A stretch of 64,000 nt of DNA from an uncultured Gammaproteobacteria bacterium (lineage in GTDB: Bacteria; Patescibacteriota; Patescibacteriia; UBA9934): contig CAZMTL010000002.1 of NCBI GenBank assembly GCA_964569575.1, positions 19,618 through 83,617 on the forward strand, written 5' to 3'. The position numbers and the translations under genes were made by a program. This document shows, in pieces, positions 39,511 through 57,978 of the stretch (positions are counted from its first letter, which is position 1; each line of letters opens with the position of its first letter). The notes under the pieces were generated by a model that saw nothing but the letters and a program-made list of their open reading frames with translations, was not told where the DNA came from and ran no database searches.

Positions 39511-40239
39511 CTACCCGCGACCAAGCGAGAATACATGCACCCGCTTTACCCCTGAACGCTTCAATGCGCGCGCAGCGGCCGAAGCCGTTGCCCCCGTTGT
39601 CCACACATCATCCACCAATAAACATCGTTTCGAAGAAAAATCAGAACAAACCAAAAACGGCGAATTCTCCATTTCTAACTTCCGCGCCTGATCACTGCGC
39701 TCCACCTGCCGACCCGTCGAACGTACCCGAACGCAACTCTCCACAACAGGCAAAGAAAACGCAGCACCCAAGTGCTCGGCAATCAATCGAGACTGATCAA
39801 ATCCCCGTTCGCACAATCGTTGAGCATGCAACGGAACATACGCGATTGCATCAATTTTTTGAAATTGTAAAAAAGGCTCTAATTGAACTAAATAGAGACC
39901 AAACTTTCGCTGCAACAACTTCCAAGCAGAATCATCGTAAAAATATTTCCAAGCATGAAGAAGTTCACGAAAAACCGGATCCGCATACACAAAGGCAGAT
40001 TGAACAGAATCAGGTAACAGCTCTTCTCTACATCCAACACACGCAAAACCATACGGTGAAGAAGCGGCGCAAACAAAACACACCGCATGCGGAACAGTTG
40101 GCACCCACGAAACAAAACAATCACCACACAACAAATCCCCTTCCCGCGAACACCGAACACAAAAACGCGGAAAAACAGCCTCCTCCAAAACGGAAACAAG
40201 CTCTTTTAGTCGACCCATGCAAATGAATTCACAAGCCAA
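39511..40239 (-). CDS. comFC: ComF family protein (ComFC-type phosphoribosyltransferase)
   Basis: N-terminal CxxC...CxxC zinc finger; C-terminal LLVDDVWTTGATASAAARAL PRTase motif; about 235 aa. Confidence 0.75.
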   Translation of the reverse strand: MACEFICMGRLKELVSVLEEAVFPRFCVRCSREGDLLCGDCFVSWVPTVPHAVCFVCAASSPYGFACVGCREELLPDSVQSAFVYADPVFRELLHAWKYFYDDSAWKLLQRKFGLYLVQLEPFLQFQKIDAIAYVPLHAQRLCERGFDQSRLIAEHLGAAFSLPVVESCVRVRSTGRQVERSDQARKLEMENSPFLVCSDFSSKRCLLVDDVWTTGATASAAARALKRSGVKRVHVFSLGRG

Positions 40240-40763
40240 CGATCACCACTTTTCACTAACTCAATTTCAATATCTTGGTAGCGTACAGACGTATTCGAAG
40301 GACTATCAATGGACTCACTTCGCTGTGTTGTGACTCGATATCGAACCGCTTCCGCTGTTTCCGAAACCGTGTTCATCGCGATCACACGTGTCGAAACACC
40401 ATAATATCCGCCAGGCGTTGTCGCGAGCGATTCATTGGTCAAATTTCCAAGCGACGCTTGAAGCGAAGGACTCGAAAGCGCAGCAACATCATCCACATTG
40501 GCAAAATCCACATCCGTTGAATAACTAGCGTATCGCTCGACAAATGAACGCGCAATCACATTCGAAGGCGAAGTCATCGTTCGGCTATCAACTTCCGTCA
40601 CACGCTCAATGCGCGCTCGCTCTTCTTCAGTCAATTGGTCTTCAGGTAACGGAACTTCATCTATCGCACCGTCACGTCGCAAAAGCAAGAAGAGAATCAA
40701 TGCAATCAATCCTGCAATAATCAGCACCGCACCAATCACTTCGAACATGGTTTTTCTTGTCAT
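40206..40763 (-). CDS. Bitopic membrane protein, possibly VirB8-like (N-terminal TM + NTF2-like-looking C-terminal domain); inference only
   Basis: MTRKTMFEVIGAVLIIAGLIALILFLLL TM; C-terminal ...VRYRVTTQRS...YQDIEIELVKSGDRWLVNSFAW. Located immediately downstream of virB4. Confidence 0.3.
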   Translation of the reverse strand: MTRKTMFEVIGAVLIIAGLIALILFLLLRRDGAIDEVPLPEDQLTEEERARIERVTEVDSRTMTSPSNVIARSFVERYASYSTDVDFANVDDVAALSSPSLQASLGNLTNESLATTPGGYYGVSTRVIAMNTVSETAEAVRYRVTTQRSESIDSPSNTSVRYQDIEIELVKSGDRWLVNSFAWVD

Positions 40764-40768: not shown

Positions 40769-42766
40769 CTATTTTGGAGAAATAGGAATACTACTCGATC
40801 CCTGCACTTCAGCTCCATCAAGTGCATTTTTCGAACTATTCGGTTTTACCTCATCTTCGTCATCCGTAAACGATGAAGCAAATTCCTTTTTCGCACGCTC
40901 AATTTCGAGCAACTGCTCAGGATTCGTCGTAACCAATTGATCTTCAGTATACGAAGCGACAATTTTAATCGCCGCATGCTTCGGTCCAGCAAAGAAAATC
41001 CCCTCCCCTACAGCCGCTTCAAGCAACAAATATTTTTCACTCTGAGTTAAATTAAACGTGGTCGCAATACGCTCCACTCCCGCCGGCGACTGCTTTAGTA
41101 ACAATTGAAGCGACGAGTTTGTCACAATCGCCTGCCCATACGCGTTCCCCAAGAAGTCGTTCACGTCCTGGGTAATAGTCGTTACTCCTAAATAATACTT
41201 TCGAGCACGCTTCACAAGCGCAAAAATAAACTTCGCCGAATCTTCGTATTGCATCAGCCACCAAGCTTCATCAATCGCCAACACGCGCTTTCGACGACTA
41301 GATCGCACCACATTCCAAATATAGTTTACGATGGTATAAATCGCGATCGGTCGCAATTCATCTTCCAAGTCTCGCACCGAAAAAATCACCAGCTGATTAT
41401 CCATCTCCACGTTAGTCGGCGAATTCAACAATCCAGAAAACGTTCCCTGTGTATACTTACGCAAACGCGCAACCAATTCCTTCGTTCCTTCCATTCCCTC
41501 CAACACTTCTTCCAAATCTTGCAACACCGGAAATTCAGCCGTTGCTAAATTCTGCATCGGAATATCGGAAGTAATATCTTTTTTCGCATACGACTCAATC
41601 AGTGCACGGTCTAACATCGAATCTTCTTCCGGCGTAAATCCAATCACGCCAGCCCCACCCTGCGGCTGACCAATCATAATACGCAACAATCCCTTCAAGG
41701 TAATCACCGCACTTCTCAAAATATCTTCCACCGACGTTTCTTCCCCGACAGGACGTGGTAAATCGAACGGGTTAATTTTTGCTTCGGAAGCAAGCGAAAC
41801 ATTCACGAATGTTCCCCCAACCGCGTCTGAAAGATTGCGATACTCCATTTCCGGATCGATAATAATCACGTCCGTTCCCATCATCAAACTACGCAATACT
41901 TCCAATTTTACCGCATAACTTTTTCCGGCACCGGACGTCGCAAACACGACCGAATTCGCATTCTGCAACGAAAAACGATCAAACAAAATCAACGAATTGT
42001 TATGACGATTAATCCCGTACAAAATCCCTTTATCGCTCGTTAAATCAGAAGAAATAAATGGAAACGAAGAAGCGATCGGTGACGTGTTCATGTTGAACGT
42101 AATCATCAACTCGTCGTTACCAAGCGGCATGGTGGAATTGAAGCCTTGTTCCGATTGATAAAACCCACGCTTCGAATAAATCAACTTCGCACCAAAAATA
42201 GATTCAATGTCTTCAGTACGCTTATCAAGCTCTTCTTTATCCTTCGCGTACACCGTAATATAAAAAGCAAACTGGAAAAAGTGCTCAATCCCCTGTGTTA
42301 AATCGTCACGCAATTGTTCCATATCGCGCAACGCGGTTTCGCGAATCGGATCACGCGGCGCTCCTTTTTCGTTGTCCGAAATAATCTGTGCCTCCACAAT
42401 ACCAACACGGTTTCGCAACTGCTTCAAAATAACCGGTGATTCTACCGGATAAAAAAACATCGCAATGTCGAGCGTTCCATTATAATTGATCACCGGCGCA
42501 CCCCATCCAATCCCAACGTATCGCGGATACGTCACCACAAACAATGTGCGAATATACGTATTTCCTAACAACAAATGATCAGGATTTACCTGAAAAGAAG
42601 CCGGAGCAATCAGATCGCGAACCGTAACAGTTCCACGTCGATACACGCGCTCTTCTTCAAGGGTCGCCTTTTCTTGAACAACACGTTCTTGCTCAGGCGT
42701 AAGCGGCTTCGCCTCTTGCGGCGCAGCCTGCTTCTTTTGATTCAAGTCATTAATATCAAATGCCAT
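40769..42766 (-). CDS. virB4: VirB4/TrbE/CagE-family type IV secretion ATPase (ATPase portion)
   Basis: VFATSGAGKSYAV Walker A, VLAIDEAWWLM Walker B, VirB4-like C-terminal region; 665 aa. Confidence 0.8.
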   Translation of the reverse strand: MAFDINDLNQKKQAAPQEAKPLTPEQERVVQEKATLEEERVYRRGTVTVRDLIAPASFQVNPDHLLLGNTYIRTLFVVTYPRYVGIGWGAPVINYNGTLDIAMFFYPVESPVILKQLRNRVGIVEAQIISDNEKGAPRDPIRETALRDMEQLRDDLTQGIEHFFQFAFYITVYAKDKEELDKRTEDIESIFGAKLIYSKRGFYQSEQGFNSTMPLGNDELMITFNMNTSPIASSFPFISSDLTSDKGILYGINRHNNSLILFDRFSLQNANSVVFATSGAGKSYAVKLEVLRSLMMGTDVIIIDPEMEYRNLSDAVGGTFVNVSLASEAKINPFDLPRPVGEETSVEDILRSAVITLKGLLRIMIGQPQGGAGVIGFTPEEDSMLDRALIESYAKKDITSDIPMQNLATAEFPVLQDLEEVLEGMEGTKELVARLRKYTQGTFSGLLNSPTNVEMDNQLVIFSVRDLEDELRPIAIYTIVNYIWNVVRSSRRKRVLAIDEAWWLMQYEDSAKFIFALVKRARKYYLGVTTITQDVNDFLGNAYGQAIVTNSSLQLLLKQSPAGVERIATTFNLTQSEKYLLLEAAVGEGIFFAGPKHAAIKIVASYTEDQLVTTNPEQLLEIERAKKEFASSFTDDEDEVKPNSSKNALDGAEVQGSSSIPISPK

Positions 42767-42768: not shown

Positions 42769-43473
42769 TTAAAATCCGTCCTCAACGCGCAATTCGTTCA
42801 CGTTGGTTAATTTTTCATTATCGTACACGTCCGGGTTGTACACCGTGTAATACAACTCAATCAGCCCCTGTGTATCGAGTACCACGCTCTTCAATCCCAT
42901 TCCGTTCAAGCCCCCTTCCACAATACTGACACGCTGCATTAACGCCTGTTTGCGCTCTTTAAATTGCTTGGCATTCAACTTCACCACCGAAGCCGGCACA
43001 AGCGCACTCGAAATACGAGAAAAAAATCCATTCTTTTTATCGCTCGCCGTACTATACGGAACAACAACATAAAAACGCTTCTCCATAATCTCGCCCAAAT
43101 CCACCAAATCCTTCACGAATGCACGGTAATCTTTAATTTGCGTACGTAACAATTCATTCGCAATCTTTTCCTCTTGTTCAATTAAATAATTCATGTACCG
43201 ATCAACGTTCATCTTTCGTGACTGGATAACGATTTGCAAAGGATGTTCCAATCCATTCAAAAACTGCATGTACGACTGAATAGTCGCCTGCTGTTCATCA
43301 ACTGATTTAAGCGCAAAATTAATCGACGATACCATCATAACGGCACGCAACGTACCATCCTTCAAGATCACCACATTCTCTCGAATTTCGGCAATATCCA
43401 AATATCGCTGAGTCGGAGGACCTGGTTTTACTTTACTAATTTTTTTGGATTGCATTTCGTTCGACTTTGCCAT
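42769..43473 (-). CDS. VirB4 N-terminal-domain-like protein (split VirB4, translationally coupled to 40769-42766)
   Basis: Stop TAA at 42769-71 and downstream ATG at 42766-64 (2-nt gap). Sequence ...QRYLDIAEIRENVVILKDGTLRAVMMVSSINF... resembles VirB4/TraC N-terminal domain; combined length about 900 aa. Confidence 0.45.
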   Translation of the reverse strand: MAKSNEMQSKKISKVKPGPPTQRYLDIAEIRENVVILKDGTLRAVMMVSSINFALKSVDEQQATIQSYMQFLNGLEHPLQIVIQSRKMNVDRYMNYLIEQEEKIANELLRTQIKDYRAFVKDLVDLGEIMEKRFYVVVPYSTASDKKNGFFSRISSALVPASVVKLNAKQFKERKQALMQRVSIVEGGLNGMGLKSVVLDTQGLIELYYTVYNPDVYDNEKLTNVNELRVEDGF

Positions 43474-43474
43474 A

Positions 43475-43954
43475 TTAAAGCAGTTGTTTCGAAGTAACCG
43501 GATCAATAAGAATTTCTTGATCAACGCCAGATTCGTACACGCCACCCGTATTCACCACCAACGCCAATTCAGACAATTTTGATCGTTCCAACCCACGTTT
43601 CACAGGGACAGGCGGAGGAAGAACTTCAACGTCTTTTTTCAGACGCATCTTCAAATCAGAATCGAGCAACGTCTTATCCCAAACCCGCAGCATCGGCTTG
43701 CGCAACGTTTGCACCATATTCAAAGCAATATAATGAAACGGCCGCCCATTCACCCGCGCAAACGCAAAGACCACGCCAATCACCAGCACCGGAATTCCTA
43801 ATAAAAGAAAAATAATGATGCTCGAAAAAAGACTATAGATAAAAAATTCCACCAAAATAACCGCAAGCAAAATCAAAAACTGCCGACCAGTAATCGGACC
43901 AATAATCTTCGACTCGACATCAAGAAATTGTGGAACGACAAATTGCTGCGCCAT
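43475..43954 (-). CDS. PrgI/VirB3-like small two-TM protein
   Basis: MAQQFVVPQFLDVESKIIGPITGRQFLILLAVILVEFFIYSLF...LLLGIPVLVIGVVFAFARVNGRPFHYI; stop 1 nt before the VirB4-N ATG. Start at 43954 rather than track start 44278 (which runs into the repeat region). Confidence 0.5.
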   Translation of the reverse strand: MAQQFVVPQFLDVESKIIGPITGRQFLILLAVILVEFFIYSLFSSIIIFLLLGIPVLVIGVVFAFARVNGRPFHYIALNMVQTLRKPMLRVWDKTLLDSDLKMRLKKDVEVLPPPVPVKRGLERSKLSELALVVNTGGVYESGVDQEILIDPVTSKQLL

Positions 43955-44047
43955 GCCTTCAGTATAACACGAAAACAAAAACCAACAGGGATAATAAAGT
44001 GGATAGAAAAAGAGAAATTTAAACCCGACAGCAAACAAAGAAGCGAT

Positions 44048-44097
44048 CAACGCGTAACCACCCCTAGCCCCTCCTTGTGGATCTAAGAAGGAGGGGG
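44048..44097. repeat. Direct repeat copy 1 (caacgcgtaaccacccctagccc + GC hairpin cccctcctt...aaggagggg)
   Basis: Read directly; 9-bp perfect stem cccctcctt/aaggagggg with 11-nt loop. Confidence 0.7.
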
Positions 44098-44565
44098 AAC
44101 GAGCTCGATTTTCGCCGAGAGATTGCTTCGTCGCAAGACTCCTCGCAATGACCAAGTCGAGGCGCATAGATCCTTCACTTCGTTCAGGATGACAAAGTCG
44201 TTTGTTCTGATGTCCTTCCCGCACGAAGAGAGGCGAAGCCGAACGCCAGCGGAGCTCAACGCGCTGTGACAAAGGCACTGTAACAAAATCACGCGAAGGT
44301 CGAGCAGTTCGTCGAACCGGCTGGAGGGGGCCTGACCCCCGTAGGACCGGTGTAGCGAAAAGAACTGCGATCGGTCACTTTCCATAATTTAAAAAATGAA
44401 GCGTGCCGCCGAGCCACGAAAGGCTCTTTCTTTTGCCTACTTCTCTTTGAGCCAGCAAAGAAAAGTAGGTCGGGGTTCGGGGGTGAAACTCCCGATCGCT
44501 GTGACAAAGTCGAGTGTAACAAAATCAAAGCGGCGGAGTCGCGTCAGCCTCGCGGGCACACACGA

Positions 44566-44694: not shown

Positions 44695-47019
44695 TTAAAA
44701 CTTCATCTTCTTATTCAACTCCACAATCGCCTGCACCTCGGCAGGAGAAAGCGATTCTTTCCCTTCATTTCTACGATCAGTCGCAATTTCCGCAAACGAA
44801 CGCCCGGCTGTAAGCGATTCACGCGCCATATCTAAATACAACCGATTTACCGGACTCTTGCGCCAACCAGCAACACCAGCAATACGCTGTTCGTAGGCCG
44901 TCGCCTGCAACAACATTAATTTATCCAAAATCTTGCGCCCTGCTTCTTTAGGATCGCTACTCAATCGTCTAAATTCAGAAACCGTCATTGTCCCCAATTC
45001 CTCCACAGGCCCAACCAATTTCTTCACATACGAAACATCCGTCACCTTCCCACCAGATTCTTTATGAACAGGCGCCGCACTTCCAGCGCTCACAAACGCC
45101 TTCGCTTTCTTTGGTCGAGCAGAAACTTCTGCCTCAACAAGAGCCTGCGAACTCACAGAACCTCCCTGCAACTTCAGTTCCTCCTCTTTTGTTCGCGCAG
45201 CACTTACGCTTGCATGCGGAAGCACCGGCTCGACAGATTCTGTCGAACGACTTTTCGTTAACGCAGAAAAACGCTGATCAAGCACCTGGCGCTCTGCTGT
45301 ATCAAAATCCTTCTTCACCTCAGGTACAGCTTTCACTGGCATTTGATGCACACTCGCACGTTTCGCAGCCAACACCACACGCGCAGCATCTTCGTGAGTA
45401 AACGAAAACTTATCAATCAAATACCTCTCCGCTTGATGCAATTCACGCGTTCCTCGCACTACCGAAGCAATCACATCACGAGCCTGCTTTTCTTCAACGG
45501 TATATTTATTAAAGATCTCTGAAGTACTTCGGTACACTTCTTCCACAGTCGTCTCGATAGAAGTAGCCGCAGGAGCAACAGCACGTCTCTGCATCTTGCG
45601 CTTCTCGGCAAGCACCTCCTTCTCTTCCTCTGGTCCAAGCATCATCGAGGCATCTTTCGCTGCAACCACCGAAACGCGTTCGAGCGATTGCGCAGGAGAA
45701 CGCACCGAAAGCGGGCGATCAAACTGTACAGGCGTCTTTTTTGCCTTTATCTCAACCGCAACATCAGGCCCAGACATCATACGCGTCCGTTCCTTGCTTA
45801 ACTTAGCTAAAATATCGCCTGCTTCTTCTTTCGAAAAACCGTGAACATGCTCCAAAATCTGCCGCGTCTTCCCCTTCGAACGCCCTTCGTGCAAAAACCC
45901 GATCGTTAAATCTTTATACGCCACTTCGGACAAACCTTTATTTAGAAAAGTAGCGTGAATCGACTCAAGCGAATCACCCGCATCAACAGTCTGATTTACA
46001 GCACCACGGTCAATAGGAACATCGCGCCAATTCGAAGGTACATCAAGCGCCGCAAATAACGAATCCCAAGACAAATCTTCATCGTCAACCGGAAGCTGAA
46101 CGTCGGGCGCAGGAGCTGTATCACGTGAAGAAAAAAGAGCCATAAACTGATTCCAAACAGCCGCCTTCGATCGCTCGAGTGGTACATCGCTCGCAACATG
46201 CACATCTGTTCGACCAATCTGAACAGACTGATTTGCGCCACTCAACGTAGATTTATACCGATCCGCTTCGCGCTTTGTTAATACCCCAGGCTGTCTGCGC
46301 TGTAACGTCGTCGGACCACCCACTTTAAATACATAAGCAGGATCATCGGCCGCACGCGCAGGCAACCTCGAATCCAAAGACGGTTCAACGACAGGCGCTT
46401 CTGTTTCCAAATCCGAAACATCAGACACATCGAGCGCAAATTTCTTCCCTTCTTTATCGAGCGCATCCAAAAATTTCTCCGAAACAGCCGCATCCAACTC
46501 CATCCCACCAACCGAGACAGGACGACCAAGTGTATGCAAAATAGATTCCTTCGTTCGCGCCTTGGTTAAATACGAAGTAGCCAAGTAAATCAACCGTCGC
46601 AACAAATGTTCCGACAAATTCATCCCCCACTTCTGCACCATGTGACGCACAAACTCGTCGGGAGAAATTTGCTCCTTCTCAACTACCTTTGTTTCATAGT
46701 GCGTCACATCTCCTCCCAAATGCGAAATCTCGGCAACCACGGTTGGTAAATATAACTTCAACGGCAACAACACCATTCCCAAAAAATCCGCCGTCACTTC
46801 CTTCGACTTCGCCTCTTCCAGTCCAAACGCCGCCCGAATCAATTCCTCAACGCCCGTAATTTCCAAATTCCCCCGCACCACCGCATCGCGTAAATCTAAA
46901 AACTCCTCCAACCGATCGGCCGGTAACTGATGCTTTTCAACTAACTGCCTAAGTCGACTAAACACTGAAACGTCGAGCACATAAACAGCAACTGGCTTGT
47001 AAACACGTAAATCCTCCAT
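44695..47019 (-). CDS. Large hypothetical soluble protein (774 aa) inside the T4SS-like cluster
   Basis: Long ORF, no TM, no P-loop found by eye (GRSKGKT is G-x3-GKT, not a Walker A); no assignable motifs. Confidence 0.5.
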   Translation of the reverse strand: MEDLRVYKPVAVYVLDVSVFSRLRQLVEKHQLPADRLEEFLDLRDAVVRGNLEITGVEELIRAAFGLEEAKSKEVTADFLGMVLLPLKLYLPTVVAEISHLGGDVTHYETKVVEKEQISPDEFVRHMVQKWGMNLSEHLLRRLIYLATSYLTKARTKESILHTLGRPVSVGGMELDAAVSEKFLDALDKEGKKFALDVSDVSDLETEAPVVEPSLDSRLPARAADDPAYVFKVGGPTTLQRRQPGVLTKREADRYKSTLSGANQSVQIGRTDVHVASDVPLERSKAAVWNQFMALFSSRDTAPAPDVQLPVDDEDLSWDSLFAALDVPSNWRDVPIDRGAVNQTVDAGDSLESIHATFLNKGLSEVAYKDLTIGFLHEGRSKGKTRQILEHVHGFSKEEAGDILAKLSKERTRMMSGPDVAVEIKAKKTPVQFDRPLSVRSPAQSLERVSVVAAKDASMMLGPEEEKEVLAEKRKMQRRAVAPAATSIETTVEEVYRSTSEIFNKYTVEEKQARDVIASVVRGTRELHQAERYLIDKFSFTHEDAARVVLAAKRASVHQMPVKAVPEVKKDFDTAERQVLDQRFSALTKSRSTESVEPVLPHASVSAARTKEEELKLQGGSVSSQALVEAEVSARPKKAKAFVSAGSAAPVHKESGGKVTDVSYVKKLVGPVEELGTMTVSEFRRLSSDPKEAGRKILDKLMLLQATAYEQRIAGVAGWRKSPVNRLYLDMARESLTAGRSFAEIATDRRNEGKESLSPAEVQAIVELNKKMKF

Positions 47020-47028: not shown

Positions 47029-49860
47029 TTAAGGGGTTCCTGTAGAGCCTGGCGTTGGCGTTGACGGCGTCCCAGAAGTTGCCATACCCGGAGCCGATCT
47101 AATATCTCGAGCTACCAAATTAGCATAATCCTTCAAACGTTCACGCTCTTCGCTCTTCCGAATAACAACCGCTCCTTTTCGAGCAGCCACCGCATCATCT
47201 GCTCGAAGTACACGCATAACATTCATAACAGCAGCTTGAATATCTTTTAATTCAGTAGCATTTGCACGCTGTGCGCGCGAATGCAAATCACTAAGTAATT
47301 TTGAAGCATTCTGAGCAATCACCTTTCCGGCATCAGTATGATTACCGCCACCCGTCAGCGAAGGCGTAGACAACATCTTCGCATCAAATTGGGCAACAGC
47401 GGCAGGAGCTGTAGAAATAACTTGTTGCAACAAAATTGGATTAGCAACAGAACCCGTCGCAGAATTAACCTCCACGTCGTTCAAATTACCTGTTGATAAA
47501 TATTTAGCTTGCTTATATTTACTCTGTTCAGCTAGCGAAAGAGTGTTGGAAGCCTGAATAGCATCGATCTTCGCGACAAGAGCATCTCGAACATCAGTCG
47601 CCATATCACTCAAATCCGCTCCACTCACAGCCGCATCAACCGTAGCCTGAACAACACGCCGAGCCTGTTCTTCTGCTTTAGGGTCTGTAGCAGAGCCAGC
47701 AAAATCAAGTGCCGCGATTGGATAAACGCCTGCTTTGACTTCTTCGTCGGTGACCGGCCTCAAAACAGCCTGCTTAGCTCCAATAGCCTCGCTCATTTTT
47801 TGAATATTATTACTTACGGCAGGATTATAATTCTTATTCTGACTAAGCTTAGACAAGTAATTTTGGACGTCTTTATTAACGCCGCCAACGCCAGTATTTA
47901 ATTGATCCAGTGCAGTAGACGCGGTTCGTTTACCACCATTCTCCTGGTCATTAAAGTAACCCATGACTCGCTCATCCAAGGCATCAAGAATCTTTTGATT
48001 AGGCACTGTCTTATATTTCTTTGTCTGAGGATCCATAACGTATTCACCCGTCTTCGGATCAACATAAAATTCCTGCAACGATTCCGCCGAAATCATGCTT
48101 GTCTTGAAACGTTCATCTGAAATAACCTTTTTAACATCTTTTTCATCAAGCAAATGCAAATTTTTAACCTTTGCTTTATACAAATTATCGCTGAAAGACT
48201 TGTCTTCCGCTCCAAAAACCTCTTCCTTCGCATCAGCAACCTTAAGAGCCTGTTTCATTGCAAGATCATAACGCTCTTGTCCTCCAGGTTCACCATACTG
48301 CTTCTGCAATCGTTCCTTCAATCGCTTCTGCTCAAACTTATTTTGCATTAAATTTGAAGCAATAAACATTGAAAACGCTTGGTCACTTTCGTTAAGCTTA
48401 CTAATATCAAAACCAGGCGTCATCATGCGCTCATAATCCATCGCGCGCTGCGTATCGCTTCGAGATTCATATCGCTTCTTCGCCGAATCACGAACAGCAT
48501 TTTCTTGTAACTCAAGTCGATTTTCAGCCATTCCTGCTACATTGGATGTAGCACGCCCAACGGCAGCCAAGGGAGCGAAGGAACTTTGAGCTTGTCGCTC
48601 TCCAAATCTAACAGCATTCTGAGCGTAATCTTTGAAAACTGCAGGAGCGCCTGTACGCCGGTACCCTGCATACGCACCCTTCCCTGCATAATTTGCACCC
48701 GTCGCCAATGTTCGACGCGCAAGCATAGTCGCCATTCCTCCATCCGCCGAAATTGCTTTCGCAGCAAACCCTCCAACCGAAGAAGCTTGCTGACTTGCTG
48801 TCTGAAAGCCAACCATAATCAAAGCAACTCCAACAATCACTCCCATAATCTGATCAAGTGAAAATACTTCAACCAAAAAGTCTGATTCAAAATAATTTCC
48901 ACTTGCGTCTAACTGAGGATCAAACCCAGCGTCTGTGGCAATCGATCCACTAGACGCAACTGCTAGCCCAAGCCAAAGGAAAAAAAGCATGATTGGACCA
49001 AACGCAATCGCGCCAGTCAATCGCTTCCACCAATCTCCGTAGACTCCCTGCAACCCCCCAAGCGTCGCACCCACGCCTTGCGCAAAAAACGCCAACGGTG
49101 AAATAACAATCAAAATCCAAAGTACAACAATGCGATACATCAACGCTGCCGTTAACAAAATAAGCGTAGACGCAACCAGCGCAAGCAGCCAAACCATCGC
49201 AATGGTTGTACCAAGCAATTTAAACGCCTCGATTCCAGAACCAACCGTACCAGCAACTAAACCAGCGTCTTCATTCAATTCGTAAAATCGGCTAAGATTA
49301 AAAAATTCGGCAAAATTCCCTGCCCCTACTTCCGAAATCGCATTAGCAAATGTCACCATGATCACCTGACCAATATCAATCATGAACAAAGTGATCGTCT
49401 TTGAGAAATTCATCGCAATCACAGCGATAAATAATTTCGGCAATTGCTGCTTCCAATCAACTCGACCGGCACCAACCATTGTTTGAACCGCAATCACGAG
49501 CAAAATTACAATCACGAACATGTTCATCAAGTCTCGCACCAACTGCCAACCAACCAACACAACCTGACTACTTCCAAATGCATCATACTGAATCAACGTC
49601 AGCATGATAGAGATAAGCAAAACAATTAATTGCCCAAGCATCCAGGCGATCACGTTAAAGATTCCAGCAATCAAACCCATCAATGTATTTCGAGCAGTAG
49701 CGGTAATCGCTCCAAGTGTATCGCTTTGAGCCAAAACAACATCAGCGCCCCCGAAAACTCCCCCAACAATAACCGCACTCAAAATAAAAAAACTTAAAAA
49801 CAATCTGTGTTTGAACAGAAAAACGCTTGCCTGCGAAAACCATGTACGCAACCGGTTCAT
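47029..49860 (-). CDS. VirB6/TrbL-like polytopic membrane protein with about 550-aa hydrophilic C-terminal extension
   Basis: Start at MNRLRTWF (49860): signal-like segment, then at least 7 hydrophobic helices over about 400 aa, then long soluble region rich in A/K/Q. Confidence 0.45.
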   Translation of the reverse strand: MNRLRTWFSQASVFLFKHRLFLSFFILSAVIVGGVFGGADVVLAQSDTLGAITATARNTLMGLIAGIFNVIAWMLGQLIVLLISIMLTLIQYDAFGSSQVVLVGWQLVRDLMNMFVIVILLVIAVQTMVGAGRVDWKQQLPKLFIAVIAMNFSKTITLFMIDIGQVIMVTFANAISEVGAGNFAEFFNLSRFYELNEDAGLVAGTVGSGIEAFKLLGTTIAMVWLLALVASTLILLTAALMYRIVVLWILIVISPLAFFAQGVGATLGGLQGVYGDWWKRLTGAIAFGPIMLFFLWLGLAVASSGSIATDAGFDPQLDASGNYFESDFLVEVFSLDQIMGVIVGVALIMVGFQTASQQASSVGGFAAKAISADGGMATMLARRTLATGANYAGKGAYAGYRRTGAPAVFKDYAQNAVRFGERQAQSSFAPLAAVGRATSNVAGMAENRLELQENAVRDSAKKRYESRSDTQRAMDYERMMTPGFDISKLNESDQAFSMFIASNLMQNKFEQKRLKERLQKQYGEPGGQERYDLAMKQALKVADAKEEVFGAEDKSFSDNLYKAKVKNLHLLDEKDVKKVISDERFKTSMISAESLQEFYVDPKTGEYVMDPQTKKYKTVPNQKILDALDERVMGYFNDQENGGKRTASTALDQLNTGVGGVNKDVQNYLSKLSQNKNYNPAVSNNIQKMSEAIGAKQAVLRPVTDEEVKAGVYPIAALDFAGSATDPKAEEQARRVVQATVDAAVSGADLSDMATDVRDALVAKIDAIQASNTLSLAEQSKYKQAKYLSTGNLNDVEVNSATGSVANPILLQQVISTAPAAVAQFDAKMLSTPSLTGGGNHTDAGKVIAQNASKLLSDLHSRAQRANATELKDIQAAVMNVMRVLRADDAVAARKGAVVIRKSEERERLKDYANLVARDIRSAPGMATSGTPSTPTPGSTGTP

Positions 49861-49993
49861 AGATAGGTACAGTATAACAAATTTTCGCTCACTCTTGTGA
49901 AAGTTTTGCACATGCAACCGAAAGAAAAATCCCCACTTCTTCCAAACGCCGTTTGCGTGCAGAAAAAGTAGGGATCAGTTGAGCGAACACGAC

Positions 49994-52450
49994 TCAGGGA
50001 GCCGTCAGTACACCGAAGACAGGGACGTGTGACTCGTAGCCGTCGACCGTTCCTTCGTTCGGAACCGTCGAGAACATGACGTCGCCCGGATTGGTACCAC
50101 TCGACACAGGCACGCCATCGAACGGCGCACCAGCATGGCGGTACACACGCGAAGCCCACGAAGGAAGTGCGTCGTCTTCGTGAAACACGAAGCCGAGACG
50201 ATCACACACGTACCCAGGTCGGAACAGGTACGCGTTGAATTCGACCGAGTCTTCCTGCAGTAGAAGCGAGAGGTGCAGTCCCGAGGGCTCGACGCCGTAA
50301 CACTGAGAAATGGCAACCAAGCGGTCACCACCCCCAAACGCCACCACGCCACCCGCCTGCCCCGAACAGCCCGAACCGTACGTGGGATTGGTGCACAAAT
50401 CGGGCGGATAGAGCGTGATCACGCGTCCATCCGTCACCCACTGCGCACCAGGCGAAGCAGAGCCGTAGCGATGTTCGAAATCGCGATACACCTCATGCAC
50501 GCCATTACCATCGATATCAGCGACCACATTCGGCCACTCGCGGTAGTACCGCTGAAGCGTCAGTCGACCGTCTTCGTCCACCGCGCCGTCGCAGTCGTTG
50601 TTCGCCAAGTCCCACAGCTCGACGTGTCCCGGGTGAATTGCGGCATTACTGTCCACGCAGTCCCCGGTACACAAGCCGTATCCGTCGCCATCCACATCCG
50701 CACACCCCGCGTCAGTGTCGGTGTCCGAATCAGAATCCGCATCACTGTCTGCATCCGCGTCAGAATCGGCATCCGCATCACTGTCGGAGTCTGCGTCAGA
50801 ATCCGAATCGGCATCGCTATCCGCATCTGCGTCCGTGTCAGCATCCCCTTCTGCACAACCGAGTTCGGAATGATCCGAAGCTCCGTTGCAATTGAGGTCA
50901 CCATCCACGTAATCACACATGCTCCACCCCAGTCCCGCGAGCGGCGCACCTGGATACGAGTATTCGTACCCGTCGTCGCAATCACCCTGACAGGTGGTGA
51001 AGCCATCGAAGTCCGAGTCCGGACACAAATCGCCCGTATCGGCGTCTGCATCAGAATCGGCATCCGAGTCAGCATCGCTGTCCGCATCTGCGTCGGAATC
51101 TGCGTCGCTATCCGAATCCGCATCCGCGTCGGCATCCGACTCACCCAGCAAGGAAACCCACTCGTCCGCAGGTCCTCCACAGGTGTACACGTCCTGCTCG
51201 GTCAAGCAAAAGTAATCCGTGGCGCAATCGCCCACACGCCCCTGAACCGCCGTGATGGCACCGTCCAGAACGTGCAGAATGTCGCGATCACCAAAACCGA
51301 GCAACAAGTACGTCGACCAGTTCGCGATCGGCATCGCAACGCCGTCCGAAACCAGGTAGACGGTAGGCGTATGTTCTTCGCGCATCACCGTTCCGTCCCG
51401 AAATTCCGCCAAAGCGAAGTCCGAAACGTACTGCGAATACGAAGCGATCTGCGCCGGCACCGCCAGTTCGGACACCGAATTGATCGACATCCCCCAGCTC
51501 GCCAACACCTCACGCCAGTATTCGTGCGGAACACGCAGACGACGCTTGGCACCACCCTCACCGAGCAGCAACCACACCTCGCCTGCGTCGTGCACGGCAT
51601 CCACCGACCAATCCCCATTAACCATGCCACCCGTTTGGTAGCAGGCGAATTCCTGAGGAGAGATCACTTCCACGTTCCGGAAGTCGAATTGACCACCCCA
51701 GAACACCGACTCCGACACGAACGGTCGTAGCACACCTTCCTGCAACCAATACACCGTGCTCGAAGAAGGCTGCTTCACCAACATCCCGTTTGGATGCCAG
51801 CGAGGCGTGCTCAACCGCGAACGGTACAACCGCCCACCCGGCAGTGCACACACCATGTCACTCACAGGGTAACCAGCTTCGATTCCCGTTAGAACATCGG
51901 ACGCATACACGTCCAAGCCCTCGATCGAAGTTCCGTACACCGCATCCTGCCGTGCGTTCCCCTGGTGACGCCCCATGTGGACATGATCACCCGTCGACAT
52001 CCCCGTCGTTCCTTCGTATCCGATCAACGAACCGGCCGCCACCTGCGTACCGTCCGCCACGAACACGTCAGAGAGATGCCCAAGCAACACGTACGTACCG
52101 TCCCCCATCTCGATGTTCACATGAATGCCGAAATTGGTATTCGGCGAATCCTCGTGAACGAACGCCGTGCCCTCGACTGGCGAGTACACCAGATCACGCC
52201 GGTCGTTCGGCGTGTCGAGATCGACGTCGTACCGCGTGCTGTTCCCGCTATGCGAGAAATCACCACCCGGACCCTGAACACACATGCTGGTGTAGCCGTA
52301 GTCGAACGGCATATCCACCATCACCACATCCTGCCCACCACCAACGCCACCGGTCTGATCCCAATCCTCCAAGCCACCCGGCATACGCCAGCAGCCCGAG
52401 TTCAGAATCAGAATCAACAGCAGCATCAGCACCTGAAGATGCTTTCGCAT
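49994..52450 (-). CDS. Secreted (possibly lipoprotein) peptidase M23 (LytM-type) with long Asp/Ser/Ala acidic repeats and Cys-rich CxxDCDD...NDCDG repeats; encoded in GC-rich DNA
   Basis: MRKHLQVLMLLLILILNSGC signal; M23 motifs ...GHLSDVFVADGTQVAAGSLIGYEGTTGMSTGDHVHMG (HxH); runs of DADSDSDADSDADAD; GDCVDSNAAIHPGHVELWDLANNDCDGAVDE repeat. Confidence 0.65.
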   Translation of the reverse strand: MRKHLQVLMLLLILILNSGCWRMPGGLEDWDQTGGVGGGQDVVMVDMPFDYGYTSMCVQGPGGDFSHSGNSTRYDVDLDTPNDRRDLVYSPVEGTAFVHEDSPNTNFGIHVNIEMGDGTYVLLGHLSDVFVADGTQVAAGSLIGYEGTTGMSTGDHVHMGRHQGNARQDAVYGTSIEGLDVYASDVLTGIEAGYPVSDMVCALPGGRLYRSRLSTPRWHPNGMLVKQPSSSTVYWLQEGVLRPFVSESVFWGGQFDFRNVEVISPQEFACYQTGGMVNGDWSVDAVHDAGEVWLLLGEGGAKRRLRVPHEYWREVLASWGMSINSVSELAVPAQIASYSQYVSDFALAEFRDGTVMREEHTPTVYLVSDGVAMPIANWSTYLLLGFGDRDILHVLDGAITAVQGRVGDCATDYFCLTEQDVYTCGGPADEWVSLLGESDADADADSDSDADSDADADSDADSDADSDADADTGDLCPDSDFDGFTTCQGDCDDGYEYSYPGAPLAGLGWSMCDYVDGDLNCNGASDHSELGCAEGDADTDADADSDADSDSDADSDSDADADSDADADSDADSDSDTDTDAGCADVDGDGYGLCTGDCVDSNAAIHPGHVELWDLANNDCDGAVDEDGRLTLQRYYREWPNVVADIDGNGVHEVYRDFEHRYGSASPGAQWVTDGRVITLYPPDLCTNPTYGSGCSGQAGGVVAFGGGDRLVAISQCYGVEPSGLHLSLLLQEDSVEFNAYLFRPGYVCDRLGFVFHEDDALPSWASRVYRHAGAPFDGVPVSSGTNPGDVMFSTVPNEGTVDGYESHVPVFGVLTAP

Positions 52451-52997: not shown

Positions 52998-54158
52998 TCA
53001 AGGGTACGTTTTTTGATTCTTCAGCCTTGGATACAAAATCGAATTTTTTATATCATCCCTGCACAAAATCCAAGTAATAAACCTCTCTACCCCCAAACCA
53101 AAACCCGAAGTAATCTGATAACCCTTCTGCCTTCGTAAATTTATGTACCATTCGTAAACTTCGGAATCAATGCCTTGCCTAAAAAGCGATTCATACATTT
53201 CATCCACATTATCCTGACGTTGACCGCATCCAACAATCTCACCACCAAAAGATCCTTCAATAATTGGGGGAAAAATCAAGTCCGCGTTGAAGACCTTACT
53301 CGAACCTTCAGAAACAGGCTTCTGATAAAATGGCACTCTATCTCGATCGTAATGCGTAATCCAAAACGGCGTAACAAATCCCAAGATCTCTGCTATCTTC
53401 AACTCACCCTCGGAAGTTAAATCCCGACCAAACGGAGTAGTACGTACAAAATCCCCATAGCCAGACTGAACTAAAGTTGAAATTGCTCGATCAAACGTAA
53501 TTACTGGAAATTTTTGTGATTGCAAAACCCTGTTCGCGGCAATCAATGATCTCTCGGAGGCTAAACTTATTTGCTGCAAAATATTCGGCAATGAAATCAA
53601 CGTATACGACAATATCTTGACATAATTCTCCACTAGAGGAATCAAGTCACTGATGCCGCCCCGTATCTCCGCCTCACAATGAAAAAATTGATTCAAATGT
53701 CGTTTATCTGGATCTTCTCCGCGCATCGAAGGCATGTAACAATAAACTTTTTCGATACCATTCAACAAAATTGGCTCAAAACCAAACTGAGAAGAATCCA
53801 CAAGATTTGAAGCATACTTTCCGAATTGAATTGGAATTGCTTCAGAATCAGAACCAGGTCCCATTGGCGAAGAAACGCTGGGAGTCAACATGAACAGATC
53901 AATATTTTTCGCTCCACATTCTACGGAGAAATAATAATCCGAAACAATTTTGACATGATGTCGCAGATAAATGAGAGCCTGAAAATAACCACTCGTCGTT
54001 AGATCAAGATAATGAGTTTCTGAATGATACTGTGGTAAAACAAATTTTTTCTGATCAATATTTTTAAAGATCAAATCATCCTTCACTATTTCCTGCATTA
54101 AATATGACGGCAACATAAAATCAATGTTCAAGTATTCTAATTCTTGCTTTATTTTCAT
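52998..54158 (-). CDS. Class IIb aaRS (AsnRS/AspRS)-like catalytic-core protein lacking an anticodon-binding OB domain (AsnA-type ligase or aspartyl-adenylate-forming enzyme)
   Basis: Motif 1-like NIDLFMLTPSVSSPMGPGSDSEAIPIQFGKYASNLVDSSQFGFE; motif 2-like MRGEDPDKRHLNQFFHCEAEIRGG; motif 3 SGFGLGVERFITW; N-terminal 60 aa not OB-like; 386 aa. Confidence 0.6.
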   Translation of the reverse strand: MKIKQELEYLNIDFMLPSYLMQEIVKDDLIFKNIDQKKFVLPQYHSETHYLDLTTSGYFQALIYLRHHVKIVSDYYFSVECGAKNIDLFMLTPSVSSPMGPGSDSEAIPIQFGKYASNLVDSSQFGFEPILLNGIEKVYCYMPSMRGEDPDKRHLNQFFHCEAEIRGGISDLIPLVENYVKILSYTLISLPNILQQISLASERSLIAANRVLQSQKFPVITFDRAISTLVQSGYGDFVRTTPFGRDLTSEGELKIAEILGFVTPFWITHYDRDRVPFYQKPVSEGSSKVFNADLIFPPIIEGSFGGEIVGCGQRQDNVDEMYESLFRQGIDSEVYEWYINLRRQKGYQITSGFGLGVERFITWILCRDDIKNSILYPRLKNQKTYP

Positions 54159-55140: not shown

Positions 55141-55142
55141 CT

Positions 55143-57174: not shown

Positions 57175-57203
57175 TTGACAAAACCGCTAAAATAAGCTAT
57201 GTT
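57175..57203 (+). promoter_or_regulatory. Putative sigma70 promoter (TTGACA-N17-TATGTT) for the lipoprotein gene, followed by a GNRA-tetraloop leader hairpin (57220-57237)
   Basis: Read directly; hairpin gacactc-gcaa-gagtgtc then gcttcttgctctttggg; AGGAG SD 8 nt before ATG at 57307. Confidence 0.4.
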
Positions 57204-57306: not shown

Positions 57307-57978
57307 ATGCGCAACAGCATGACCTTCATCGCGTTCGCCCTCTCCCTCGTCGCCTGCAAGGCCGGCAAGGACACGGGCATCGACACCTCCAACCCGGAAG
57401 AGGTCGCGTTCATCGAGTACAACGTCACGATCGGCAACCAGCCGGTCAACATGTTCGTCTTCAATGCCGACGGACAGTCGGTCGCCAGCACCAACCGCGA
57501 AGTCCAGGTCGAACCGGGACCCTACCGGCTCCTGGTCGGCGACGGCAGCGCGTGGCACCCGAACGGCGAGTGGCCGCTGTGCCTGTACACCGACGGCAAC
57601 TACTGGGGCTGTCCGGAGACCGAGACGCTCGTCCTCGAGGACGGCGACGTGTTCCAGAGCTCCTGCGACATGTCCCTGGTCTTCTGGGGAACGTACACGC
57701 TCACCAGCCAAAGCTGCAACGAGTCTGCGTGCAACGAACCTCGCACTGAGACCAATGTCTACGTCGAGGTGCAGCCGAACCTCACGATTCTGCTCGAAAG
57801 CGGAGACGGAGACAACATCGCGAACGAGTTCAACGGAACGCTCGAAGTACAAGGAGCAAGCCTGTCGATCAACACCGATGCAACCCTTGAAGTCAACGAG
57901 TTCAACGTCGACTACATCGACTTCATCCGGTACCAGCCTAGCGGAAGCTGGAGCAACATCACCATGTCGCGCCAGTAA
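57307..57978 (+). CDS. Hypothetical lipoprotein (GC-rich gene)
   Basis: MRNSMTFIAFALSLVACK: canonical lipobox L-V-A-C; Cys-containing Asn/Thr/Glu-rich mature part; antisense ORFs 57187-58026 and 57162-57494 are shadow frames. Confidence 0.6.
   Translation: MRNSMTFIAFALSLVACKAGKDTGIDTSNPEEVAFIEYNVTIGNQPVNMFVFNADGQSVASTNREVQVEPGPYRLLVGDGSAWHPNGEWPLCLYTDGNYWGCPETETLVLEDGDVFQSSCDMSLVFWGTYTLTSQSCNESACNEPRTETNVYVEVQPNLTILLESGDGDNIANEFNGTLEVQGASLSINTDATLEVNEFNVDYIDFIRYQPSGSWSNITMSRQ

Follow-up and report, generated by a model that had tools for sequence, protein, structure and literature searches.

A GC-rich M23 lipoprotein gene heading a Patescibacteria T4SS-like cluster is probably of vertical descent and a candidate for the wall opener

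The type IV secretion systems (T4SS) of Patescibacteria are homologous to monoderm (MPF-FATA) machinery (PMC12102498). T4SS loci with comF, recG and radA have been reported for class ABY1, with comF beside the T4SS, and the saccharibacterium Ca. S. epibionticum cannot grow epibiotically without its T4SS-linked peptidase and lysozyme genes (PMC12102498). In Patescibacteria, linkage of VirB1 homologues to VirB4 is rare, and other hydrolases may take their place; the 2025 survey that described this poor linkage left the question of the wall opener open (PMC12102498).

We analysed a stretch of 64,000 nucleotides, hereafter the window, in which a T4SS-like cluster begins with an ORF for a protein that has an M23 peptidase domain (Table 1). 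An identical protein is present on an independent Logan contig. The best explanation has three parts, which we consider probable when taken jointly. The protein would be a lipid-anchored zinc endopeptidase and the peptidoglycan hydrolase of the cluster, a functional analogue of VirB1/PrgK. Its gene would be an old, vertically inherited component of an Uhrbacteria-type T4SS-like cluster. Its GC excess, seen as high GC3 and very low A3, would be a property of the gene that is actively maintained and common to nearby small acidic lipoprotein genes, and not a mark of import.

Table 1. Positions in the window of the M23 gene, the segments of its product and the genes around it.
Feature	Position	Strand	Remarks
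M23 lipoprotein gene	49994..52450	(-)	818 aa ORF; first gene of T4SS-like cluster
Signal peptide with lipobox-like end (MRKHLQVLMLLLILILNSG-C20)	52391..52450	(-)	read from sequence
M23 (LytM/lysostaphin-type) catalytic domain	51911..52318	(-)	aa ~45-180; PF01551 and alignment to solved M23 enzymes
Family-specific middle domain	51140..51910	(-)	aa 181-437; repeats weakly similar to PlyCB/endolysin cell-wall-binding domains and the EccB1 repeat
Acidic tract 1, (Asp-Ser/Ala)n	51041..51139	(-)	aa 438-470; tandem repeat, period 12
Degenerate MopE-like Cys-rich repeat	50846..51040	(-)	aa 471-535; aligns to P0001 repeat
Acidic tract 2, (Asp-Ser/Ala/Thr)n	50711..50845	(-)	aa 536-580; tandem repeats, period 18/36
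Canonical MopE-type putative metal-binding motif (PF11617)	50573..50710	(-)	aa 581-626
Beta-rich C-terminal domain	49997..50572	(-)	aa 627-818; module also on other secreted wall hydrolases
Antisense shadow ORF, not a gene	50273..51730	(+)	485 aa; bounded exactly by sense CTA codons 241 and 730
Second shadow ORF	50560..51180	(-)	ORF listing
Large polytopic membrane protein, second cluster gene	47029..49917	(-)	962 aa; VirB6/PrgH-like by position only
774-aa cluster protein	44695..47019	(-)	position conserved in related loci; no family match
PrgI/VirB3-like protein	43475..44278	(-)	PF12666, E 2.6e-7
TraC-like (PF26593-type) cluster protein	42769..43545	(-)	homologous to PF26593-labelled genes in L002-L006; Pfam scan of window protein gave no match
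VirB4-like T4SS ATPase	40769..42766	(-)	P-loop_TraG E 8.3e-26, plus AAA_10 and DUF87
185-aa membrane protein and ComF-like phosphoribosyltransferase, last two conserved genes	39511..40763	(-)	Pribosyltran, DZR_2
Divergent small acidic lipoprotein gene	57307..57978	(+)	223 aa; signal peptide ...ALSLVAC; GC3 0.86

The signal peptide and the conserved C20, which is nearly invariant (at least 90%) among 34 homologues, predict a Sec-exported lipoprotein. The M23 catalytic domain named in the original prediction is confirmed by Pfam (PF01551, aa 84-167; E 2.9e-13; 50.3 bits vs a gathering score of 28.7), and phmmer gave significant matches to LytM (E 1.4e-7) and lysostaphin (E 2.9e-4), and also to zoocin A and ShyA. 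In the LytM alignment H125 pairs with the catalytic His and H156-V-H158 with the HVH (HxH) motif. H67, D77, D79, H125, H156 and H158 are invariant among the 34 homologues, which are 30-43% identical to the window protein. At the HxxxD position the Asp is kept as D77 and the His is replaced by R73, at a site that varies in the family. The invariant H67, located 9 residues ahead of D77, is a candidate substitute for the missing His and may bind zinc as in M23A enzymes with long His-Asp spacing, for which beta-lytic protease (M23A; H22, D36, H82, H121 and H123) is the precedent (PMC8715609). The active site, judged from these residues, is apparently intact.

The missing HxxxD His could instead mean that the domain is no enzyme and acts as a degenerate (dLytM-type) regulator or wall-binding module, like EnvC, NlpD, DipM and the inactive, regulatory LytM domain found in PrgK, a T4SS hydrolase (PMC11323569). 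We regard this as quite unlikely: four of the five canonical catalytic or ligand residues (D77, H125, H156 and H158) are invariant together with H67, whereas degenerate LytM domains lose such residues (PMC11323569), activity with a distant first His has a precedent in M23A enzymes (PMC8715609), and a family search of the cluster genes found no second hydrolase that the domain could regulate.

The middle domain, which has three repeats, matched no Pfam family; its low-scoring likeness to PlyCB/EccB1 (identity 11-15%) suggests that it may bind peptidoglycan. The two acidic low-complexity tracts noticed in the original prediction are both present. At the DNA level they consist of imperfect 12-, 18- and 36-nt repeats, tract 2 being 61-76% identical to tract 1, and as stalks they amount to 78 residues, with a distal module of the binding type at their end. 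Two Cys-rich repeats had been proposed as well, and the Cys/Asp-rich pattern DxDGDG...C..DCDD...PGA.E.C...DNDCDG..DE does occur in the protein; the 39-mer quoted with that proposal was found at 50588-50626. The second repeat (aa 597-626) passes PF11617 if scanned alone (34.5 bits vs 27; E 2.5e-8). The first had no PF11617 match when scanned alone and, from its alignment to the first MopE repeat of the orthologue P0001, appears to be a degenerate MopE copy; a full-length Pfam scan recovers neither. The proposal thus holds for the second repeat and, for the first, only in this degenerate form, while an NCBIfam search gave no match of the TIGR03382 type that had been expected. MopE motifs and Asp-Ser/Thr/Ala tracts are frequent in other secreted Patescibacteria proteins, those with the motif including P0001, P0005, P0079, P0104 and P0123-P0130. 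The motif is a 30-aa module and is uninformative on gene origin.

The full architecture, including the C-terminal module, is common to the window and P0001/L002, the closest relative by VirB4 (84% identity). These two orthologues combine MopE motifs with a module that is present on unrelated hydrolases, among them CHAP+SLT hydrolases. Most orthologues have no stalks and carry a short, different C-terminal domain. The C-terminal domain of the window protein has no confident structural relative, and a similarity to aegerolysin was not confirmed by Foldseek (E 1.1).

The original prediction placed the gene at the head of a T4SS-like operon, and a PrgI-like protein and a VirB4-like ATPase are indeed encoded downstream. 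The true start of the PrgI/VirB3-like gene is probably downstream of the ORF start, and the 962-aa membrane protein had no Pfam or NCBIfam match. Gene order in L002-L006 is that of the window: M23, a ~900-aa membrane protein, a ~600-770-aa protein, PrgI, TraC-like, VirB4, a 185-aa protein and ComF. Presence in relatives had been proposed as a check on the gene, and it was found at the same place in 27 non-redundant loci (the window and 26 species-level loci), where it heads the same 8-gene cluster or adjoins T4SS genes; a homologue of the 962-aa protein directly follows it in the 26 further loci. In four related genomes the M23 orthologue lies beside parAB or in another housekeeping context, away from T4SS genes, and the linkage is therefore frequent but not obligatory. 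This synteny strengthens the predicted role of a VirB1-like opener, which is plausible as a function but not as a family assignment: the protein does not belong to the VirB1 family, and Pfam and NCBIfam searches found no SLT, CHAP or lysozyme family in it.

We hypothesize that lipidation of the N-terminal Cys would hold the catalytic domain near the cell's own membrane, and that this domain, with the set H67...D77, H125 and H156-x-H158 in a spacing resembling M23A, would cut the peptide cross-links of peptidoglycan. The three-repeat middle domain would bind the wall and position the enzyme, producing a local gap in which the T4SS-like channel could assemble; such local opening would be the job of VirB1, PrgK or TraG in other systems. 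In the lineage of the window, the two Asp-Ser/Ala stalks and the MopE-type Cys motifs would carry the distal beta-rich C-terminal module, which is probably surface- or partner-binding.

The same parts could serve a weapon or adhesin directed at a host bacterium, in which the lipoprotein is displayed or released, the stalks and the C-terminal module reach the host, the M23 domain cuts the host wall, and the linkage to the T4SS reflects co-regulation. The original prediction had likewise allowed for an opener aimed at the wall of a prey or host. We think this rather unlikely, although several observations agree with it: the Patescibacteria studied so far are epibionts, with the essential T4SS-linked genes of Ca. 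S. epibionticum as a case in point (PMC12102498), the stalks are long and end in a binding-type module, the protein is fast-evolving, and its orthologue is unlinked from the T4SS in the four genomes above. However, the catalytic domain is the part closest to the lipid anchor, ~25 residues from C20, and the distal module is non-catalytic. This domain order favours the cell's own wall as the target. The stalks are also absent from most orthologues, and the aegerolysin similarity is unconfirmed.

The gene is compositionally atypical, as had been predicted. Its GC content is 0.593 and its GC3 0.669, compared with 0.454 +/- 0.040 and 0.421 +/- 0.068 for the 43 other ORFs of the window (z = 3.5 and 3.6, respectively); ribosomal-protein and EF genes have a GC3 of 0.31-0.38. 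The 1-kb bins inside the gene have GC values of 0.599 and 0.592, the flanks are at about 0.44-0.45, and the drop in GC lies no more than about 100 nt from the stop codon. GC1 and GC2 are raised too. The bias acts on synonymous codon choice: for 17 of the 18 degenerate amino acids GC-ending codons are over-represented, A3 falls from 0.257 to 0.072, and the observed GC3 of 0.69 compares with the 0.41 that background codon usage would give for this amino-acid composition. Both shadow ORFs of the original prediction exist. The gene has only 4 TTA/CTA/TCA codons in 819, vs 14-25 in neighbours, and the shadow ORFs are thus a mechanical by-product of the depletion of A-ending codons.

The original prediction took this composition, together with the Cys-rich repeats, as a sign of horizontal acquisition of Myxococcales type. 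Under that reading the gene came recently from a high-GC donor such as Myxococcota and its GC excess is donor composition that has not yet ameliorated. The GC and GC3 values more than 3 SD above those of the window genes, the Lys-poor protein, as in high-GC organisms, and the MopE motifs common in Myxococcota proteins (e.g. P0102) are all in its favour. The homologues are not. The best ~94 (E 5.5e-159 to 1.5e-39) all carry PF01551, and wherever source names are given for these they are Uhrbacteria or 'Patescibacteria group'. The sole Myxococcota-named match, P0102, is through the MopE motif only (E 2.8e-19), and the sole match outside the Patescibacteria-type lineage that extends past this motif is the truncated, Poribacteria-labelled L045. 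Since the best homologues come from one lineage, which was the outcome that the original prediction itself named as refuting it, and the motif is common in Patescibacteria, neither the horizontal nor the Myxococcales-type part of the claim is supported.

Import is further opposed by the synteny in 27 loci and by the co-divergence of M23 with VirB4: judged from pairwise identities, r = 0.83 for M23 vs VirB4 and 0.835 for the membrane protein vs VirB4. No adjoining tRNA (nearest ~15 kb), flanking or att-like repeats, or mobility gene was found at the M23 gene. The protein is poor in Arg (3.1% vs 5.1%) as well as in Lys, so the Lys deficit reflects acidity and not GC-driven K-to-R replacement. 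The GC3 excess is present in every orthologue of the 27 loci, including that of a genome with a background GC3 of 0.80 (M23, 0.95), and has outlasted the turnover of synonymous sites between orthologues. Import is largely refuted by these results, and we consider it very improbable.

In 27/27 loci, which are phylogenetically non-independent, M23 has a higher GC3 than the syntenic genes, by +0.06 to +0.40 (mean +0.21), and its GC3 follows that of the neighbours (r = 0.79, slope 1.15). Four-fold sites differ by 30-46% between the closest strongly GC3-biased orthologues, with the bias persisting. Because the excess is kept in all syntenic orthologues despite this synonymous turnover, we conclude that it is probably maintained and gene-specific. 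It extends to other lipoprotein genes. In these loci dGC3 is +0.22 for other lipobox ORFs and +0.007 for the remaining ORFs (p = 4e-5), and in L046 four lipobox genes in a row have GC3 values of 0.80-0.97. Upstream lipoproteins of L019 and L002, which are GC3-rich, show weak similarity (E 1.5e-5 and 1e-3) to the product of the small lipoprotein gene at the end of Table 1.

The candidate causes are locally GC-biased gene conversion and selection acting on the structure or stability of the mRNA. M23 mRNA folds more than synonymous-shuffled controls, in which codon-junction dinucleotides are not preserved, in four of five orthologues (gene-level z -5.9, -4.6, -3.0 and -5.6), which hints at selection on the RNA. 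The GC-rich genome L003 lacks this signal (z -1.7), and values for VirB4 and the ~600-770-aa protein are between -2.5 and +1.5.

Gene conversion would be central if this fast-evolving surface gene were repeatedly replaced or recombined among Uhrbacteria, the GC3 excess being a by-product of GC-biased conversion at a hot spot. M23 does evolve much faster than VirB4 (76-85% vs 91-98% amino-acid identity for the same genome pairs), its C-terminal region has been swapped, the window and L002 differing from most orthologues, the repetitive Asp-Ser/Ala-coding DNA could be a recombination substrate, and the elevation of GC1 and GC2 would also fit. Nevertheless, the identity of M23 follows that of VirB4 no less closely than the identity of the neighbouring membrane protein does, so that wholesale replacement must be infrequent; conversion tracts should ignore a stop codon, but GC falls sharply at the ORF end; and the four-fold divergence of close M23 orthologues is lower than that of neighbours. 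Four near-identical loci of one species have too few SNPs to gauge recombination. We judge this explanation unlikely.

As a tentative proposal, possible but short of probable, Uhrbacteria-type Patescibacteria may keep a compositional 'dialect' for a small group of acidic, Lys-poor, Cys-containing lipoprotein genes, including the T4SS-linked M23 gene, recognizable by very high GC3, a near absence of A-ending codons and local mRNA folding in excess. Its persistence through synonymous-site saturation and across genomes of 42-61% GC would mean that it is upheld by selection at the nucleic-acid level or by gene-targeted biased conversion.

For the T4SS of Patescibacteria, whose wall-opening enzyme has been missing, the M23 protein is a concrete candidate. 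As the T4SS is essential to the epibiotic lifestyle in the one lineage tested, such a hydrolase is a natural handle on how ultra-small cells breach walls. The locus is also a caution for island-calling: a 3.5-SD outlier in GC and codon usage, with shadow ORFs and a protein composition like that of high-GC organisms, appears nonetheless to be vertically inherited, and its outlier status is itself conserved. If the 'dialect' is real, it would be a clear bacterial case of a strong intragenomic GC island that marks function and not foreign origin. The conserved GC3/A3 bias, common to nearby lipoprotein genes, can be approached with existing metagenomes.

Among known proteins, the stalks resemble those of staphylococcal MSCRAMMs (ClfA/B, SdrC/D), which have long acidic dipeptide repeats between functional domains of a wall-associated protein, but are Asp-Ser/Ala/Thr here and not strictly Ser-Asp. 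MSCRAMM family models gave low-complexity matches only (33-55 bits vs cut-offs of 999-2500; SdrD, 54.6 vs 2500), and a MSCRAMM ligand-binding region is thus not indicated. MopE-type PF11617 motifs are abundant in Myxococcota and in many secreted multidomain proteins; one repeat here passes the threshold, and metal binding by the motif is putative. With LytM/lysostaphin (M23B) and beta-lytic protease/LasA (M23A) the protein shares the fold family and the HxH motif, and the five residues proposed as its catalytic set have an M23A-like arrangement (PMC8715609). Unlike LytM/LasA-type enzymes, it has its first His outside HxxxD, is fused to family-specific domains and is a predicted lipoprotein. 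Like VirB1 of the Agrobacterium type, it is a proposed T4SS wall opener encoded at the operon start. VirB1 cuts glycan strands as a lytic transglycosylase, whereas the M23 protein is a predicted peptidase for peptide cross-links; with no sequence or fold relationship between them, it is a functional analogue at most. The nearest parallels are PrgK (Enterococcus faecalis pCF10), TraG (pIP501) and CwlT (ICEBs1), which are likewise encoded in T4SS clusters, extracytoplasmic, membrane-tethered and thought to open the wall, features that for the M23 protein are read from sequence. PrgK also has a LytM/M23 domain, but one without HxxxD and HxH that is inactive, the activity being in its muramidase (SLT-like) domain (PMC11323569). 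The M23 protein differs in being anchored by a lipobox Cys in place of a transmembrane helix, in having no SLT/CHAP domain and in its accessory parts (PlyCB/EccB-like repeats, MopE motifs and a new C-terminal module), and its M23 domain is the sole hydrolase domain, retaining the HxH motif, the catalytic His and the Asp.

The M23 peptidase gene departs sharply in base composition from the rest of the window, as the original prediction had described. GC content is 0.599 and 0.592 in two 1-kb bins within the gene and about 0.44-0.45 in the flanks. Over the whole gene, GC is 0.593 vs. 0.454 +/- 0.040 for the 43 other window ORFs, and GC at third codon positions (GC3) is 0.669 vs. 0.421 +/- 0.068 (z about 3.5 in both cases). 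For 17 of the 18 degenerate amino acids, the gene favors codons ending in G or C, and third-position A (A3) falls from a background of 0.257 to 0.072. The compositional bias is synonymous, and amino-acid composition was ruled out as its source, given a predicted GC3 of 0.41 vs. 0.69 observed. Translational optimization was also ruled out, since the lowest GC3 values (0.31-0.38) are those of genes for ribosomal proteins and elongation factors (2-11 kb); the bias is thus the reverse of what highly expressed genes show in their codon usage. The shadow ORFs over the gene are present, as predicted, and are a mechanical by-product. TTA, CTA and TCA codons account for 4 of its 819 codons, compared to 14-25 such codons in neighboring genes, and the limits of a 485-aa antisense ORF are exactly sense CTA codons 241 and 730, a coincidence with rare codons that rules out a functional antisense gene. 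A promoter and terminator scan near the gene gave hits at chance level only.

Features of the M23 protein and of a divergent lipoprotein gene in the window
Feature	Position	Strand	Details
M23 gene	49994..52450	-	818 aa
Signal peptide	N-terminus		ends in lipobox-like NSG-C20
M23 peptidase domain	aa 84-167		Pfam, 50.3 bits (cut-off 28.7)
Middle domain	after M23 domain		257 aa; no Pfam family matched
Asp-Ser/Ala tract 1	aa 438-470
Cys-rich segment	aa 471-535
Acidic tract 2	aa 536-580
MopE-type motif	aa 597-626		PF11617, 34.5 bits (cut-off 27), segment scanned alone
C-terminal domain	protein end		192 aa; no family matched
Small acidic lipoprotein gene	57307..57978	+	223 aa; starts MRNSMTFIAFALSLVAC; signal ...ALSLVAC; GC3 0.86; A3 0.09

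An identical M23 protein is encoded by an independent 3.6-kb assembly contig. The MopE-type motif was absent from full-length Pfam/NCBIfam scan output and was seen only when sub-sequences were scanned, and the NCBIfam scan gave no match of the TIGR03382 type. The Myxococcales affinity proposed for the repeats did not hold, as the MopE motif and acidic tracts are common in secreted proteins of Patescibacteria and are no fingerprint of myxobacteria. NCBIfam matches to staphylococcal SD-repeat adhesins are low-complexity and far under cut-offs, and this identity was rejected. At the DNA level, the acidic tracts are imperfect, mutually related repeats of 12/18/36 nt. The C-terminal domain alone gave no matches in a word-indexed protein search, and its homologues were obtained by exhaustive HMMER search; Foldseek found no structural relative in the PDB. 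The C-terminus of most M23 orthologues is another domain, Cys-containing and ~130 aa long (...SWSC..P.PPG...GCGL.V.VP; alignments A3/A4), in place of which the lineage of the window and its closest relative, locus L002, carries MopE motifs and a 190-aa module. The same module recurs in fusions with CHAP+SLT, CHAP and M12/M43-type enzymes (proteins P0127, P0130 and P0135). We interpret the C-terminal differences among orthologues as domain shuffling.

Horizontal acquisition of the gene, as originally proposed, is refuted by the distribution of its homologues. A query without the acidic tracts, searched against 5.8 billion proteins, returned about 94 matches at E values of 5.5e-159 to 1.5e-39, all with PF01551 and most spanning ~50-60% of the query; the source names given for them are all Candidatus Uhrbacteria or 'Patescibacteria group', a single lineage. 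The one Myxococcota-named match (P0102) aligned solely via the MopE motif. With a 6-sequence N-terminal alignment as query, a scan covering a single genome for each GTDB species recovered 39 loci, nearly all from Uhrbacteria/Patescibacteria MAGs, some obviously mislabelled. Gene order in related loci is conserved (M23, ~900-aa membrane protein, ~600-770-aa protein, PrgI, TraC-like, VirB4-like ATPase, ~185-aa protein, ComF-like), and the window cluster has the same order with M23 first. Judged from their N-termini, the window genes at 29826-31094 and 31146-33221 look like radA and recG, respectively; T4SS loci with comF, recG and radA have been described in class ABY1 (PMC12102498). Across 24 loci, pairs with more similar M23 regions also have more similar VirB4 proteins (r = 0.83 between pairwise identities), and the adjacent membrane protein tracks VirB4 equally well (r = 0.835). 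The closest VirB4 is that of L002 (84%), whose M23 orthologue, P0001, is the only one with the complete domain architecture of the window protein, C-terminal domain included (38% identity over the full length). The M23 gene of the window is not adjoined by a tRNA, a flanking repeat or a mobility gene. Taken from these comparisons, the gene does not appear to be a recent import.

Several loci depart from this arrangement. In L016, L018, L025 and L026, the M23 orthologue (~9.5-11.7 kb of each locus) lies away from T4SS genes, adjoining parA/parB in the latter three (L025 and L026 also have glyS upstream) and in another housekeeping context in L016. In L003, from an 839-kb genome, an inserted GIY-YIG gene (11868-12218) separates M23 from the membrane protein; immediately upstream (1-8214) are a Y1 transposase and a 1902-aa toxin-like gene of the SpvB/RHS/TcdB type. 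In the window, the PrgI-like (43475-44278, minus strand) and TraC-like (42769-43545, minus strand) ORFs overlap by 71 nt as listed and have N-termini far longer than those of their orthologues (PrgI 267 vs. ~146-172 aa), so the true starts of both genes are probably internal. Between M23 and the upstream lipoprotein gene is a low-GC block of four genes (52998-57042, minus strand; GC 0.37-0.39, GC3 0.29-0.38) encoding an AsnRS-catalytic-core/AsnA-like paralogue, an S66 LD-carboxypeptidase (MccF-like), a protein with a weakly AlaRS-like N-terminus and a SAM methyltransferase. Since these genes are absent from the corresponding position in L002, the block is a better candidate for insertion than the M23 gene. 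The pairing of an aaRS-like enzyme with an S66 peptidase presumably recalls peptide-nucleotide antibiotic or immunity loci.

The compositional bias is shared by the gene family. In all 27 non-redundant syntenic loci, the M23 orthologue has a higher GC3 than the T4SS genes beside it (+0.06 to +0.40, mean +0.21; sign test p = 1.5e-8), and the four orthologues not beside T4SS genes are also GC3-high. M23 GC3 follows that of the neighbors (r = 0.79, slope 1.15), with the excess holding from a neighbor GC3 of 0.27 through 0.80, at which M23 reaches 0.95. In the closest strongly GC3-biased orthologue pairs, 30-46% of four-fold sites differ in M23, vs. 35-66% in other cluster genes; synonymous sites have thus turned over while the bias persisted, which excludes an un-ameliorated relic composition. 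The GC3 bias must therefore be actively maintained.

Selection on RNA structure or stability is one means by which it could be. Local folding energies of the M23 mRNA were compared with those of within-gene synonymous-codon shuffles that do not preserve codon-junction dinucleotides, and the mRNA was more stably folded than its shuffles in four of five genomes (gene-level z of -5.9 in the window and -4.6, -3.0 and -5.6 in L005, L010 and L027), over most 150-nt windows. In the same test, VirB4 and the ~600-770-aa protein gave z of -2.5 to +1.5. M23 of L003 is not distinct (z -1.7; GC-rich neighbors -1 to -2), and its GC3 of 0.95 leaves little room to shuffle. These results are suggestive of such selection and are not proof. 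A rival explanation is GC-biased gene conversion at a surface gene that evolves fast and shuffles domains, although the lower synonymous divergence of M23 and a sharp, ORF-bounded drop in mean GC (from about 0.58 to 0.42 in the ~100 nt next to the stop codon) are somewhat against it. Four loci of a single species that are nearly identical (L004, L005, L006 and L009) differ by 0-4 SNPs per gene, too few to judge recombination or diversifying selection.

The bias extends to a class of genes. Other GC3 outliers in related loci are mostly small, encode a signal peptide plus Cys, and are typically divergent and 2-3 kb upstream. Lipobox-positive ORFs besides M23 have a dGC3 of +0.22, whereas the other 395 ORFs are at +0.007 (Mann-Whitney p = 4e-5). 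In the window, the small acidic lipoprotein gene is divergent from M23 and weakly similar to lipoprotein genes, equally GC3-rich, that other Uhrbacteria loci carry 2-3 kb upstream of M23; the longer minus-strand ORF 57187-58026 (GC1 0.81) is an artefact, the shadow of this gene. Locus L046, reached via the C-terminal domain, has four adjacent lipobox genes (1010-5974) with GC3 of 0.80-0.97 and Lys <= 1%, at least two with Asp-Ser/Thr/Ala tracts, adjoining Wzy and glycosyltransferase genes at GC3 0.51-0.55. One of the four products, P0121, shares its C-terminal domain with the window protein (59% identity). M23 orthologues are acidic, with more Cys (2.1% vs. 0.4%) and less Lys (1.2% vs. 6.2%) than their neighbors; Arg is depleted as well (3.1% vs. 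5.1%), so acidity, and not GC pressure, accounts for the low Lys content, and GC-driven Lys-to-Arg replacement was ruled out. Secreted proteins are not GC3-rich as a whole, as seen from the signal-peptide protein at 28293-29822 (GC3 0.38) and the 1946-aa protein at 58124-63964 (GC3 0.37). A second compositional outlier (13660-14949, minus strand; 429 aa, GC 0.545, GC3 0.61), which adjoins a MurA/EPSP-synthase-family gene, falls outside the lipoprotein class; its product is basic, with no signal peptide and no Pfam/NCBIfam family. We found no report of such a compositional pattern in the literature, and this conserved, class-specific GC3/A3 bias is a second point of interest besides the candidate hydrolase.

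With regard to catalysis, alignment to LytM places H125 opposite the catalytic His and H156/H158 opposite HxH. The His position of the LytM HxxxD motif is R73, variable in the family, and D77 is invariant; across 34 homologues with 30-43% identity to the window protein, no substitution occurs at H67, D77, D79, H125, H156 or H158. The five-residue set proposed here is the same as in M23A enzymes such as beta-lytic protease (H22, D36, H82, H121 and H123), which also have a long His-Asp spacing (PMC8715609). From the invariant residues, the LytM alignment and this precedent, the enzyme is probably active, with H67 as an inferred zinc ligand, and we assign it to peptidase family M23 with a putatively non-canonical first ligand position. 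The catalytic domain lies ~25 residues from the lipid anchor, with the stalks and C-terminal module distal, an order that favors action on the cell's own wall and would leave the distal end free to touch something further out.

The original suggestion of a VirB1-like role is strengthened, with M23 first in a conserved T4SS-like cluster in which profile scans of the genes revealed no second hydrolase. In Patescibacteria, VirB1 homologues are seldom linked to VirB4, and other hydrolases may substitute (PMC12102498). Together, these observations make wall opener of the T4SS-like machine the best-supported role for the M23 protein. It is thus a candidate hydrolase for the ABY1/Uhrbacteria T4SS, absent from the main text of a 2025 survey (PMC12102498), and we found no report of a Uhrbacteria T4SS hydrolase in the literature. 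In contrast to the probably active M23 protein, the T4SS hydrolase PrgK has a LytM domain that is missing both the HxxxD and the HxH motif and is inactive (PMC11323569). The M23 protein falls outside the VirB1 family, since it has no SLT or CHAP domain, and its proposed working would be similar to that of PrgK, TraG and VirB1.
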